Origin: Burkholderiales bacterium
GTDB taxonomy: Bacteria; Pseudomonadota; Gammaproteobacteria; Burkholderiales; Burkholderiaceae_C
Direction of reading: 5' to 3'
Assembly: GCA_016195825.1 (NCBI GenBank)
Contig: JACPYV010000130.1
Location: forward strand, 3,719 to 67,718
Length of the DNA: 64,000 bases
A program made the position numbers and the translations under genes. The notes below the pieces were generated by a model, which saw only the letters and a list, made by a program, of their open reading frames with translations, had not been told where the DNA came from and did no database searches. This document shows, one piece after another, positions 11,074 to 19,405 of the stretch (positions are counted from its first letter, which is position 1; each line of letters begins with the position of its first letter).

Positions 11074-13077
11074 TCAGAACGGCCGGCGCTGTTGCCACCA
11101 AACCAGCATCTGATCCACCGAGGCTTCGATGGTCAGCGCCGAGTTGTCGAGCAGCTGCGCGTCCTGCGCGGGCTCGAGAGGCGAGGCCGAGCGGTTCTTG
11201 TCCCGTTCGTCCCGCGCTTCCAGATCTTCGCGCAAGCCTTTGATATTAGCCGAAATACCTTTGGAAATCAATTGCTTATACCGGCGCTCGGCGCGTGTGG
11301 CAGCGCTTGCCGTCAGGAAGACCTTGAGCGTCGCATCCGGGAAGATGGCCGTGCCCATGTCACGCCCGTCGGCGACCAGGCCGGGCAGGCGGCGGAAATC
11401 CAGTTGCAACTGGTGCAGAGCCTGGCGCACCTGGGGGTGCACGGCGACCTGGGAGGCCAGCAGCCCGGTAGCCTCGGCGCGCAGGCGGGCACTGACGTCT
11501 TCCTGGCCCAGGAAGACCTGGCCGTCGCTGAAACGCAGTTGCAGCGTCGGCACGATGGCCGCCACCGCTGCGCCATCGTCCAGGTTCAGGCCGGCACGGC
11601 GTGCTGCCAGCCCGGTGACGCGGTAAAGCGCACCGGAATCGAGCACGCCAAAGCCCAGTGCCTTGGCTGTCTCGTCCGCCAGCGTGCCCTTGCCGGATGC
11701 AGTCGGACCGTCGATGGTGATGACGGGCACGTCGGCCGTGTTGACCGTGACGACGCCGAACAGCGTCTCAAAGTAGTCCGGGAAGGTCTTGGCGACGCAA
11801 TGCGGCTCCAAGATGCGCACCGGCACCGGCCGGTCGGCGACCAGGCCGTTGAAGGCGGCCAGCGAGAAGCACATCGCGACGCGGTGGTCGTCGTAGGTGT
11901 GGATGGCTGCAGCCTTCCAGTCGCTCAGCGGCTGCACGCGGATCCAGTCTGGCCCTTCGTCCACCATCGCACCCAGCTTGCGCAGCTCGGTCGCCATCGC
12001 GGCGATGCGGTCGGTCTCCTTGACGCGCCAGCTGGCGATGTTGGTCAGCGTGGTCGGGCCGTCGGCGTACAGCGCCATCACAGCCAAGGTCATTGCCGCG
12101 TCGGGGATGTGGTTGCAGTCGAGCGTGATGCCCTTCAGCGGCCAGGCGCCGCGCTGCACCTCCAGCCAGTTCGGGCCGGCCCGGACCGAGGCGCCCATGG
12201 CCGCAGCGGCTTCGATGAAGCGCACGTCGCCCTGCAAGGATTCGCTGCCCACGCCTTCGATGCGCATCGGCGTGTCGGTGGCAGCGATGGTGCCTAGCGC
12301 AACAAAGTACGACGCCGACGACGCGTCGCCCTCGACGAAGACCTCGCCCGGCGAGCGGTAGCGGCTGCTGGCCGGAATGACGAAGGCCGCCCAGCCTTCG
12401 CGTCGGACGTCGATGCCGAAACGTGCCAGCAGGGCCAGCGTGATTTCGATGTAGGGCTTGGAGATCAGCTCGCCGATGACCTCGATACGGATGTCGCGCT
12501 CGGCCACTAGCGGCAGGGCCAGCAGCAGTGCTGTCAGGAACTGGCTGGACACGTCGCCGCGCACCTTGACCGGAGCATCGAGTGCCAATACCGACGGGCC
12601 ATGCAGGCGCAGCGGCGGATAGCCAGGATTGCCGAGATCGTCGATGGCACAACCCAGGCCGCGCAGCGCGTCAACCAGGTCGCCGATGGGGCGCTCGTGC
12701 ATGCGCGCCACGCCCGAGACCTCGAAGTCGCCGCCCTGCGTGGCCGCCAGCACCGCCAGCGCGGCGGTCAGCGGGCGCATGGCCGTGCCGGCGTTGCCCA
12801 GGAAGAGCTTGGCCTGCCTGGCCAGCAGCCTGCCGCCCAGGCCCACGATGCTGACCGTGTCGCCGTCCTGCGCCACGCCGCAGCCCAGGGCGCGCAGAGC
12901 ATCCAGCATGACGGCCGTGTCGTCGGAAGCCAGCAGGTCGCGCACGACGGTTCGGCCCTCGCTGAGCGCAGCCAGCAGCAGCACGCGGTTGGAAATGCTT
13001 TTGGAGCCGGGCAGGCGCACCGTGCCCGCGGCACCGCGCAGCGGCGGCAGGTCGAGGAAGGGGATCTTGAACATCAC
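11074..13077 (-). CDS. aroA: Bifunctional EPSP synthase / cytidylate kinase (AroA-Cmk fusion)
   Basis: [35 protein letters not shown], then [14 protein letters not shown] (Cmk P-loop) and DGRDMG. Confidence 0.93.
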
Positions 13078-16753: not shown

Positions 16754-19405
16754 TCAGTCCTTGGGGGCTTCGGGGGTGTCACCGGCCTCGCCGGGTTCGG
16801 CGGCATCGGCTTCGTTGGTTTCATTCGCGTCGTTCTCGACGATGCGTTGCAGGCCCGACAGCTTGCTGCCGTCGTCCAGCGCGATCAGCGTCACGCCCTG
16901 CGTGGCACGACCCAGTTCGCGGATCTCGCTGACACGGGTGCGCACCAACACGCCCTTGTCTGTGATCAACATGATCTCGTCTTCCGGGCGCACCAGCGTC
17001 GCGGCGACGACGCGGCCGTTGCGCTCGCTCTGCTGGATGGCGATCATGCCCTTGGTCCCGCGGCCGTGCCGGGTGTACTCGACGATGCTGGTGCGCTTGC
17101 CGTAGCCGTTCTCGGTGGCGGTCAGCACGCTCTGCGTCTCGTCCTCGGCCACCAGCATGGCGATCAGGCGCTGGTCGGGTTCCAGCATCATGCCGCGCAC
17201 GCCGCGGGCAGTGCGGCCCATGGGGCGAACATCGTCCTCGTCGAAGCGCACCGCCTTGCCGCCGTCGCTGAACAGCATCACGTCGTGGTGGCCGTCGGTC
17301 AGCGCGGCGCCGATCAGGTGGTCACCCTCGTCGAGGTCGACGGAAATGATGCCGGCCTTGCGCGGGTTGCTGAAGTCCTTGAGCGAGGTCTTCTTGACCG
17401 TGCCCATGGCCGTGGCCATGAAGATGAAGTGGTCCTCGGGGAAGCTGCGGAACTCGCCGGTCAGCGCCAGCACGACGGTGATCTTCTCGTCGGCCTGCAG
17501 CGGGAACATGTTGACGATGGGCTTGCCGCGCGAGTTGCGCGAGCCCTGCGGCACTTCCCATACCTTGAGCCAGTAGACGCGCCCGCGGTTGGAGAAGCAC
17601 AGCAGCCAGTCGTGCGTGTTGGCAATGAAGAGCTGGTCGACCCAGTCGTCGTCCTTGGTCTGCGTGGCCTGCTTGCCGCGGCCGCCGCGCTTTTGCGCGC
17701 GGTACTCGCTCAGCGCCTGGCTCTTGATGTAGCCGGTGTGCGAGAGCGTCACGACCATGTCGGTCGGCGTGATCAGGTCCTCGGTGCCCAGTTCCTGCGC
17801 GTTGTGCTCGATGACGCTGCGGCGAGCGCCCAGCTTGGTCTGGCCGAACTCGGTCTTCAACTGCACCAGCTCGTCGCCGATGATGGTCGTCACGCGTGCC
17901 GGCGTGGCCAGGATGTCAAGCAGATCGGCGATCTCGGCCATCACGTCTTTGTATTCGCCGACGATCTTGTCCTGCTCCAGGCCGGTCAGGCGCTGCAAGC
18001 GCATCTGCAGGATTTCGCTGGCCTGCGAGTCGGACAGGCGGTACAGCCCATCCGTCTGCATGCCGTATTCGGCCTCCAGGTTGTCCGGGCGGAAGGCGGC
18101 GCGACCACCGGGCGTCTGGCCTTCGGCGCGGCTCAACATCTCACGCACCAGCGATGAATCCCAGCTCTTGGCCATCAGCGCAGCCTTGGCGACCGGCGGC
18201 GTGGGCGAGGTCTTGATGGTCTCGATGAACTCGTCGATGTTGGCCAGCGCGACGGCCAGGCCTTCCAGCACATGGCCGCGCTCGCGGGCCTTGCGCAGCT
18301 CGAAGATCGTGCGGCGGGTCACCACCTCGCGGCGGTGCTCCAGGAACACCACGACCATGTCTCGCAGATTGCACAGTTTGGGCTGGCCGTCGACCAGCGC
18401 CACCATGTTCATGCCGAAGCTGTCCTGCAGCTGCGTCTGCTTGTAGAGGTTGTTCAGCACCACCTCGGGGACTTCACCGCGCTTGAGCTCGATGACGACG
18501 CGCATGCCCGACTTGTCGGACTCGTCCTGAATGTGGCTGATGCCCTCGATCTTCTTCTCGTGCACCAGTTCAGCGATGCGTTCGAGCAGCGTCTTCTTGT
18601 TGACCTGGTAGGGGATCTCGTCAACGATGATCGATTGGCGCGAGCCCTTGTCGATGTCCTCAAAATGCACCTTGGCGCGCATCACAACGCGGCCGCGCCC
18701 GGTGCGGTAGCCGTCGCGCACACCGGCCAGGCCGTAGATGATGCCGGCAGTGGGGAAGTCCGGCGCCGGGATGATCTCCATCAGCTCATCGACCGTGGCG
18801 TCCGGCTTGCGCAGCGCGAACAGGCAGGCGTCCACCACTTCATTGAGGTTGTGCGGCGGAATATTCGTCGCCATACCCACGGCAATACCCGACGAACCGT
18901 TCACCAGAAGATTTGGCAAACGGGTCGGCAGCACCAGGGGCTCTTTATGGCTGCCGTCGTAGTTGGGCCCGAAATCGACCGTTTCCTTGTCGATGTCGGC
19001 CAGCATTTCGTGAGCGATTTTGTCGAGACGAATCTCGGTGTATCGCATCGCCGCAGCGTTATCGCCGTCAATGGAGCCGAAGTTGCCCTGGCCGTCGATC
19101 AGCATGTGGCGCAGGCTGAAAGGCTGCGCCATGCGCACGATGGTGTCGTAAATGGCCGAGTCGCCGTGCGGATGGTATTTACCCATGGTCTCACCCACGG
19201 CCTGCGCACTCTTGCGGTACTTGGCGTTGTAGGTGTTGCCCATCTCGTTCATCGCGTAGAGCACGCGGCGATGCACCGGCTTGAGGCCGTCACGGGCATC
19301 AGGAAGGGCGCGCCCCACGATCACGCTCATCGCGTAGTCGAGGTACGAGCGGCGCATCTCCTCCTCGAGGCTGATCGGCAGGGTTTCCTTGGCGAACTGG
19401 GTCAT
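16754..19405 (-). CDS. gyrA: DNA gyrase subunit A
   Basis: [12 protein letters not shown]122TE active site, GyrA-box QKRGGRG, C-terminal beta-pinwheel repeats. Confidence 0.97.

Follow-up and report, generated by a model that had tools for sequence, protein, structure and literature searches.

Two discrete forms of a DNA-gate tract in gyrA are exchanged between genera of environmental Burkholderiales

Analysis of a 64,000-nucleotide stretch of contig JACPYV010000130.1 from the genome assembly of a Burkholderiales bacterium (GCA_016195825.1), hereafter the window, showed that the DNA gyrase A subunit (GyrA) encoded there carries an unusual version of helix alpha3, the helix at the DNA gate of the enzyme, together with many linked changes around it. 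Two discrete allele states of this part of gyrA occur among related bacteria, the form of the window (variant) and the form usual in the family (canonical), with almost no intermediates and hardly any variation inside either class. They are distinguished by a tract that is exchanged by homologous recombination within the single housekeeping gyrA. We propose, with moderate confidence, that two co-adapted versions of the module comprising the winged helix and the region that determines quinolone resistance (QRDR), codons ~53-190, have been swapped by recombination under selection by an agent that acts on gyrase.

The N-terminal residues 1-196 of the window GyrA match residues 1-196 of E. coli GyrA (PDB 3NUH, 6RKS) without gaps; the colinear numbering of the original prediction is therefore correct, and E. 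coli residue numbers are used throughout. The best matches in the PDB were GyrA chains (E 1e-101). Window positions 19184-19231 code for residues 59-74, read as Y59-N-A-K-Y-R64-K-S-A-Q68-A69-V-G-E72-T73-M74, where E. coli has W59, K64, R68, V69, D72, V73 and I74. Codons and translation thus agreed with the changes at residues 64-74 and with W59Y as first described, and also with the wild-type state of S83 (codon TCG, 19157-19159) and D87 (codon GAC, 19145-19147).

The rewriting of the helix, correctly noticed in the original prediction, turned out to be part of a larger change, which had been under-described. A column-wise comparison of 33 variant with 17 canonical sequences defined about 18 class-defining substitutions, distributed over residues 53-153, and no class-associated column was found past residue 153. 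Relative to the canonical form of the family, the linked set is H53N, L55M, N56G, D58T, W59Y, R61A, P62K, K64R, R68Q, I69A, D72E, V73T, I74M, V85I, D95P, V103I, (V112I) and E153H. Ten of the class-defining positions were invariant in all 33 variant sequences; at the most distal one, residue 153, histidine was found in 25/33 variant and glutamate in 16/17 canonical sequences. The identical 16-18 substitutions were found again in dozens of genomes, so the block is not chance noise.

Congeners with the same allele showed 0 differences over the first 150 residues. Pairs of congeners with different alleles had 14-17 amino acid differences in residues 50-96 and differed by 2-13% elsewhere. The block sits in the slowest-evolving stretch of GyrA. 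The DNA-gate residues Y122 (in the motif AAAMRYTE), H45, R91, D82, S83 and D87 are all kept in the window protein, and S83 is kept in 31/33 variant alleles. Residue 83 was found to vary naturally among relatives from the environment: Leu83 (TTG) is present in two genomes of genus g38, one variant (G061) and one canonical (G254); two proteins of uncultured Roseateles have Ile83, and genome G255 has Gln83. The coordinates of the tract, of the block and of other features of the window are listed in Table 1.

The distribution of the two alleles was determined in several sets of genomes. In an unbiased sample of 23 congeners (genus g1, comprising Roseateles, Pelomonas and Paucibacter), 16 carried the variant and 7 the canonical betaproteobacterial form. 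When the family was sampled evenly (401 genomes from about 200 genera), 22 of 391 genomes (~6%) were variant-like; they belonged to 15 of 195 genera, and 10 of these 15 genera also had sampled species without the variant; the motif KKSARIVGDVI was present in about 94% of the sampled family genomes. Even sampling of the order as a whole, with 401 genomes from about 167 genera, yielded no variant among about 390 genomes outside the genus of the window, and none in the sampled genomes of the other families of the order. The allele is therefore unusual, as had been supposed, when set against the norm of the family, but it is the majority state in its genus and among its nearest relatives and no peculiarity of this genome.

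The nearest relatives were ranked by residues 100-884 of a canonical congener, which makes the ranking essentially independent of the block. Among them, 72/119 were variant and 47/119 canonical; the two were interleaved by rank and none was intermediate. The variant was seen, for example, in R. puraquae, R. microcysteis, R. cavernae, Paucibacter soli and Pelomonas sp. Root1217 and Root1237, and the canonical form in R. flavus, Paucibacter aquatile, Pelomonas cellulosilytica and Mitsuaria sp. WAJ17. The best 120 database matches to the N-terminus all carried the variant helix, in a list biased towards query-like sequences, and included the names Acidovorax, Aquabacterium, Giesbergeria and Ramlibacter besides Roseateles, Pelomonas and Paucibacter. 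Genome G193 (genus g170) is a rare partial intermediate, with the variant-like residues R64, M74, S83, I85 and P95 and with W59, R61, P62, R68, I69, D72, V73, V103 and V112 as in the canonical form; it has L153. It was considered as a chimeric allele and set aside, its residues 103 and 112 being canonical and residue 153 leucine, and it is not clearly recombinant. A few other family genomes, at 79-82% relative to the query, may be intermediate.

A donor outside the family was sought and the search came up empty, the order sample being devoid of the variant. Among 1.84 billion protein representatives, the top match had 83% identity over residues 40-160, and none contained SAQAVGETM. No variant-like segment was found on plasmid or phage records, where the best match (79% identity) was an ordinary gyrA, and a plasmid or phage vehicle was discarded on this basis. 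The variant motif was absent from the literature searched.

Several lines of evidence indicate that the tract has a history of its own. Full-length GyrA identity follows genus rather than allele. On a GyrA tree from which the block was left out, a minimum of 13 changes of allele is required, 11 of which well-supported branches make unavoidable, compared with 14.5 for shuffled labels; on a gyrB DNA tree the allele needs 9 changes, and all 9 canonical genomes stand apart. The allele is thus distributed without relation to either phylogeny. Approximately unbiased (AU) tests on residues 1-44 plus 196-700 rejected monophyly of the variant (log-likelihood difference 685, p about 1e-35), and the same test on codons 97-190 did not (log-likelihood difference 0.5, p 0.5). 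In trees of equal-size segments the allele changed 4 times in codons 97-190 and 14-15 times in every other segment; conversely, the genus label changed 22 times in codons 97-190 against 16-18 times in control segments, the minimum being 14.

The limits of the tract are clearest in a pair of genomes of genus g27, G247 (variant) and G050 (canonical). Their nucleotide divergence is 2.5% at codons 1-52, 33% at codons 53-96, 14.9% at codons 97-190 and 1.9% at codons 191-400 (Fisher p 2e-27). Synonymous differences follow the same pattern, with 28/88 codons in 97-190 and 12/210 in 191-400 (p 1.3e-8). The sequences nearest to G247 are variant alleles of other genera at codons 97-185, and G050 at codons 200-700. 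Besides gyrA and parC, G247 encodes another, third paralogue of the type IIA topoisomerase A subunit (G247:C9:281441-282688), which is not the source of the variant block. Two linked synonymous haplotypes were observed at codons 66-69 of variant alleles, AGT-GCG-CAG-GCC and TCG-GCA-CAG-GCG; they recur in several genera, two of which, g1 and g141, have both.

A bounded tract that includes synonymous divergence, with a phylogeny in conflict with those of its flanks and of another gene, is what characterizes a mosaic allele. The conflict between tract and flanks, together with the sharply bounded divergence, shows that about 415 bp have been swapped between species and genera. Since gyrB and the remainder of gyrA agree largely with taxonomy, recombination across genera is not general. 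The replacement probably runs both ways, since the canonical alleles of genus g1 fall among variant ones and the opposite nesting is seen elsewhere. Divergence at fourfold-degenerate sites between genera is ~0.42-0.45 in both classes, near saturation, and most of the transfers cannot be dated for this reason.

Two further properties of the tract were considered and put aside. The content of G and C at third codon positions (GC3) is ~0.81 in codons 53-190 and ~0.89 in the rest of the gene, and falls to 0.72 in codons 101-190 of the window gyrA; the dip is common to both allele classes across genera, so it is not allele-specific, and anomalous codon usage as a sign of foreign origin was rejected. 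The flanks of the tract are 83-92% identical between classes, an unremarkable value, and the idea of recombination anchored in ultra-conserved sequence at either end of the tract was dropped.

Helix alpha3, residues 66-76, forms the GyrA/GyrA' DNA gate, as seen by cryo-electron microscopy (PMC9886550). The methoxy groups of albicidin occupy pockets of A67, V70 and M120, and binding of the drug needs sliding of alpha3 and opening of the gate (PMC9886550). For E. coli gyrase, the half-maximal cleavage concentration (CC50) of albicidin was more than 10-fold higher with A67Q and more than 25-fold higher with V70A; it was not raised by D72N, I74M or M120A, although I74M approximately halved the maximal albicidin-induced cleavage (PMC9886550). 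The residue I74 also belongs to the hydrophobic pocket of the novel bacterial topoisomerase inhibitors (NBTIs), in which the chief difference between E. coli and S. aureus is I74 versus M75 (PMC6821735).

The window allele keeps A67, V70, G71, D82 and M120. In our alignment (A1) A67, R121 and Y122 are invariant, V70 and M120 are at least 90% conserved, and M120 is nearly invariant. With A67, V70 and M120 in place, no change was found at the albicidin/cystobactamid pocket residues; with D82, M120, A67 and G71 in place, none of the kind expected of target-site resistance to NBTIs; and with S83 and D87 in place, none of the classical QRDR kind. The NBTI resistance positions in S. aureus are D83 and M121. 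The M74 of the variant is the state of NBTI-sensitive S. aureus (M75), and is thus no predictor of resistance.

A helical wheel anchored on the published pocket residues placed A67, V70, G71 and I74 on one face (300-40 degrees) and the changed residues 68, 72, 69 and 73 in a contiguous arc (100-240 degrees), off that face. Judged from this projection, the pocket face is conserved save for I74M, and the helix is rewritten at its side and back. This disagrees with the original prediction, according to which the drug pocket itself had been rewritten. The remaining changes lie outside alpha3. Those at residues 53-64 belong to the loop before the helix, 85 and 95 are in or after alpha4, and 103 and 112 are in the wing strands; the last is at residue 153. 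Some side chains become smaller (W59Y, I69A) and others larger (I74M, V85I, V103I, V112I), the R68/D72 pair is replaced by Q68/E72, and a new lysine appears at position 62. The linked changes may be read as a re-packing behind and beside alpha3. An AlphaFold2 model, obtained from a shallow alignment, had a predicted local distance difference test (pLDDT) score <50 over residues 1-47 and 73-185.

Covariation was analyzed in 145 diverse GyrA-type representatives. A67, V70 and G71 are 98-99% conserved in this set, R68 is present in 81%, and position 72 is D in 60% and E in 37%; the very strong conservation attributed to the ARxVGD motif thus applies to the former three residues and not to R68 and D72. 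The loss of R68 was rightly singled out as unusual in the original prediction, given that Q68 was found in 1/145. M74 (29%) and I85 (30%) are frequent, A69 and T73 are rare, and the variant states E72, M74, I85, P95 and I112 are common in other bacteria. The absence of R68 goes with A61 (7/7), R64, E72, M74 and I85, and 11/13 of the sequences with K62 have no R68 (Fisher p 9e-8, with no correction for phylogeny). The co-occurrence of the variant states in unrelated GyrA proteins supports a structural coupling between them and would explain the block as an indivisible unit.

The other gyrase and topoisomerase IV genes were compared between the two classes. No GyrB column co-segregated with the allele in 17 variant versus 9 canonical genomes, and co-adaptation of GyrB was rejected for this reason. 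ParC has the same alpha3/alpha4 sequence in variant as in canonical congeners, excluding a parallel switch in ParC. As neither GyrB nor ParC co-varies, the switch is specific for gyrase and self-contained in GyrA. The N-terminal extension of GyrB that precedes the conserved SIQILEGLEAVRKRPGMYIGD has two forms within genus g1, a longer 'PDGLNANQQAAAAAEAKSG' and a short Pro/Ala-rich 'TPENxPAPAP', which do not track the gyrA allele. Full-length gyrB was not found in the window's own assembly (E <= 1e-200) and is present in 26/28 relatives; the gene is probably fragmented in, or missing from, this assembly (207 contigs, 93% complete).

The window gyrA is an ordinary housekeeping copy, in the context gyrA-serC-pheA-tyrA-aroA. 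A search of the assembly identified a single gyrA and one ParC-type gene (contig C4; 47-58% identity; AKVVGDVLGSFHPHGDQ), the latter with a canonical helix, AKVVGDVLG; the second gyrA copy whose presence had been suggested for examination was not found in this 93%-complete assembly. All 30 genomes examined had a single gyrA (30/30). The Pfam families PF00521 and PF03989 were recorded for the window GyrA and for its relatives, in agreement with a type IIA topoisomerase A-subunit fold that ends in C-terminal beta-pinwheel repeats.

How the two modules might be maintained can be outlined as follows. Mixed allele states would probably be unfit, as the coupling to loss of R68 recurs in unrelated GyrA lineages, and the block would then move whole. 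In E. coli GyrA, R68A altered the supercoiling set-point and gave ATP-dependent relaxation, effects put down by the authors to a weakened interface between GyrA and GyrA' (PMC9886550). On this ground the variant probably changes the geometry or dynamics of the DNA gate instead of ligand contacts. Replacement has been repeated, in the stretch of GyrA that evolves most slowly and at the site of gyrase poisons, from which we infer selection. Fluctuating selection by a gyrase-specific agent would best explain the repeated import of one divergent tract, the alternative allele being favoured when the agent is absent. Such an agent might be a small-molecule poison dependent on the opening of the gate, or a protein inhibitor docking to the surface of the alpha3 module; ParE-type toxins are gyrase poisons that bind the N-terminal fragment of GyrA at a site as yet unmapped (PMC10886550). 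Going further, the cassettes may possibly represent a long-lived, cross-genus balanced polymorphism kept by an undiscovered natural gyrase poison (a small molecule, a protein toxin or a phage inhibitor), a suggestion we make only tentatively. The action of such a poison would hinge on the geometry of alpha3 and the winged helix rather than on the pocket contacts already known.

A number of observations weigh against selection by a gyrase-directed agent as the force behind the exchange. The variant is wild type at every residue with a known contact to albicidin, NBTIs or quinolones, and resistance conferred by the variant cassette is something that we purely infer. No association with the allele was found for ParE/RelE toxin genes (p 1.0) or for nonribosomal peptide synthetase (NRPS) content, most variant carriers having no condensation domain; for pentapeptide-repeat genes, the counts of a first set of genomes (9/25 variant vs 1/16 canonical, p 0.059) became 11/36 vs 11/66 (p 0.13) in an enlarged set. 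Any clustering of the ~18 residues in three dimensions would be a prediction, the AlphaFold2 model being of low confidence in this region. On the side of the phylogenies, the genomes of the trees outside g1 were chosen from polymorphic genera, unbiased sampling being confined to the g1 set and to the surveys of the family and the order; reciprocal AU tests of whether congeners are split inside the tract gave p 0.3-0.4 on a low-power 282-nt segment; and on saturated sites an old balanced polymorphism is inseparable from frequent recent exchange. McDonald-Kreitman-type counts of nonsynonymous and synonymous differences (Dn 18, Ds 0) and polymorphisms (Pn 14, Ps 42) were formally significant, but the excess was discounted because the classes had been defined by 5 of these same residues, which is partly circular, and because of saturation.

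Other explanations were weighed against the exchange of selected modules. The two cassettes could set different gate stabilities or supercoiling set-points, switched to suit growth conditions with no toxin involved. The set-point shift and ATP-dependent relaxation of R68A (PMC9886550) fit such physiological tuning, the variant replacing R68 and re-packing the helix, and so do the restriction of the switch to gyrase, with ParC and GyrB unchanged, and the strong conservation of both alleles within their class. Nevertheless, no ecological or genomic correlate was found, GyrB lacks a compensating change, and single substitutions could suffice for tuning, for which a block of 18 residues seems excessive; we regard this explanation as rather unlikely. 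A neutral history, in which compensated drift in one lineage was followed by recombination that scattered the tract with no advantage, would account for the compensatory look of the substitutions, with their mixture of larger and smaller side chains and relocated charge, for the frequency of E72, M74, I85, P95 and I112 in other bacteria and for the lack of a phenotype or correlate (ParE/RelE, NRPS or pentapeptide-repeat genes). It is improbable in view of the respect for genus shown by gyrB and by gyrA outside the tract (16-18 vs 22 label changes, minimum 14), the slow evolution of the part of GyrA concerned, the mismatch barriers that the import of 33%-divergent DNA must overcome and the coexistence of both states in at least 10 genera.

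The two readings put forward in the original prediction, resistance through the drug pocket and self-resistance, are the least supported. Target-site resistance to albicidin, cystobactamids or NBTIs through the alpha3/alpha3' pocket is suggested by the position of the block in the very helix that forms the pocket (PMC9886550), by the presence of I74 in the NBTI pocket (PMC6821735) and by the halved albicidin-induced cleavage of I74M; an allele that affects gate dynamics could also act indirectly, albicidin needing the slide of alpha3 and the opening of the gate. The residues that form the pocket (A67, V70, M120, D82) are unchanged, D72N, I74M and M120A gave no gain in CC50 in E. coli where A67Q and V70A did, M74 is the state of NBTI-sensitive S. 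aureus, residues 68, 69, 72 and 73 are off the pocket face, and most linked changes (53-64, 85, 95, 103, 153) lie outside alpha3, all of which leaves this reading with little probability.

Producers of gyrase inhibitors often have modified or extra gyrase genes, which would speak for self-resistance, that is, for a genome that makes a gyrase poison and has in gyrA an insensitive target. We consider this very improbable: the only gyrA lies in an ordinary housekeeping locus, at least 15 genera have the allele and close sister species lack it, and the NRPS-rich genus g20 has both alleles. No NRPS condensation domain was found in the 93%-complete assembly, polyketide synthase and other cluster types not having been searched, and most variant carriers have none. 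Of the explanations considered, the exchange of co-adapted modules under selection is the one we retain.

Table 1. Features of gyrA and its neighbourhood in the window.
Feature	Coordinates	Strand	Basis
gyrA, DNA gyrase subunit A, 883 aa	16754..19405	minus	open reading frame (ORF) and translation; PF00521 and PF03989
Exchanged tract, codons ~53-190, ~415 bp	18836..19249	minus	divergence, segment trees, AU tests
Core amino acid block, residues 53-96, with 15 of the ~18 class-defining substitutions	19118..19249	minus	congener pairs, column association
Loop ahead of alpha3, residues 53-64, canonical form HELNNDWNRPYK	19214..19249	minus	sequence comparison
Helix alpha3, residues 66-76, GyrA/GyrA' DNA-gate interface	19178..19210	minus	limits from PMC9886550
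S83 and D87, quinolone-anchoring, unchanged; V85I between them	19145..19159	minus	codons
M120-R121-Y122, pocket residue and catalytic tyrosine, unchanged	19040..19048	minus	AAAMRYTE
H153 (canonical E153), most distal class-defining residue, codon CAT	18947..18949	minus	column comparison
aroA-cmk-like fusion, 667-aa ORF; EPSP synthase 17-439, cytidylate kinase 453-658	11074..13077	minus	
lexA ORF, called from its first start codon	22228..23031	minus	

Downstream of gyrA are serC-, pheA- and tyrA-type genes and the aroA/cmk ORF; upstream are, divergently, an OmpA-family gene, a ubiG-like methyltransferase gene, a HAD phosphatase gene and lexA. In place of the single aroA-cmk-like ORF of the window, many relatives have two overlapping genes. 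In the lexA ORF about 49 residues precede the DNA-binding domain (50-112), and its true start is probably further downstream than the first start codon.

Recombinant QRDR mosaics of type IIA topoisomerase genes are already known, namely gyrA/parC of S. pneumoniae from viridans streptococci (PMC3323274) and of N. gonorrhoeae from commensal Neisseria (PMC8973304). The window tract resembles these in that a divergent, QRDR-spanning tract was imported by homologous recombination into a resident essential gene. It differs from them in several respects: the pneumococcal and Neisseria mosaics carry one or two classical substitutions equivalent to Ser83/Asp87 and are linked to clinical fluoroquinolone use, whereas S83 and D87 are wild type here; about 18 co-adapted substitutions are fixed, in two discrete states, across at least 15 environmental genera; and switching goes both ways, with no known selecting drug. 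What is new is a block of ~18 residues that spares the drug contacts and exists in two states in this range of genera.

Another precedent is the mosaic penA (PBP2) of Neisseria, an essential drug target in which many linked substitutions have spread between species by transformation and recombination. The gyrA cassette is distinct in its target; moreover, penA has a known drug and phenotype and graded mosaics rather than two states. Makers of albicidin or aminocoumarins have extra or modified gyrA/gyrB genes as self-resistance, unlike the window gyrA, for which no second copy and no NRPS genes were detected and which has a wide, patchy spread.

The engineered alpha3 variants of E. coli GyrA (A67Q, V70A, R68A, D72N, I74M; PMC9886550) affect the same helix and have positions 68, 72 and 74 in common with the natural variant, which, in contrast, leaves A67 and V70 untouched and combines Q68, A69, E72, T73 and M74 with 13 changes outside the helix. 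The authors of that study could not select natural gyrase mutants (PMC9886550). As for the NBTI (gepotidacin) pocket (PMC6821735), the variant shares the methionine of S. aureus, and D82 and M120 are unchanged.

As an antibacterial target gyrase is among the best validated, and its alpha3/alpha4 module is the site of action of quinolones, NBTIs and albicidin-type compounds. Environmental Burkholderiales maintain and repeatedly swap an alternative version of this module in their sole gyrA, and the variant represents a natural, multi-residue way to a functional gyrase that lacks R68. Variation of the gyrA target can therefore cross genera as a short recombination tract, which bears on resistance to new drugs that bind the gate. 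Natural strain pairs that differ mainly in the cassette could be used in the search for gyrase poisons or in the study of the supercoiling set-point. Should a natural poison indeed maintain the two cassettes, the variant would be a transferable ~400-bp determinant of target-based resistance, and allele-matched strain pairs would provide a screen for the agent; should the allele be phenotypically silent, it would still be a clear case of epistasis that forces the joint inheritance of a block. The carriers are related freshwater and soil bacteria that swap two ~400-bp versions of part of gyrA, a behaviour that hints at a selective agent.

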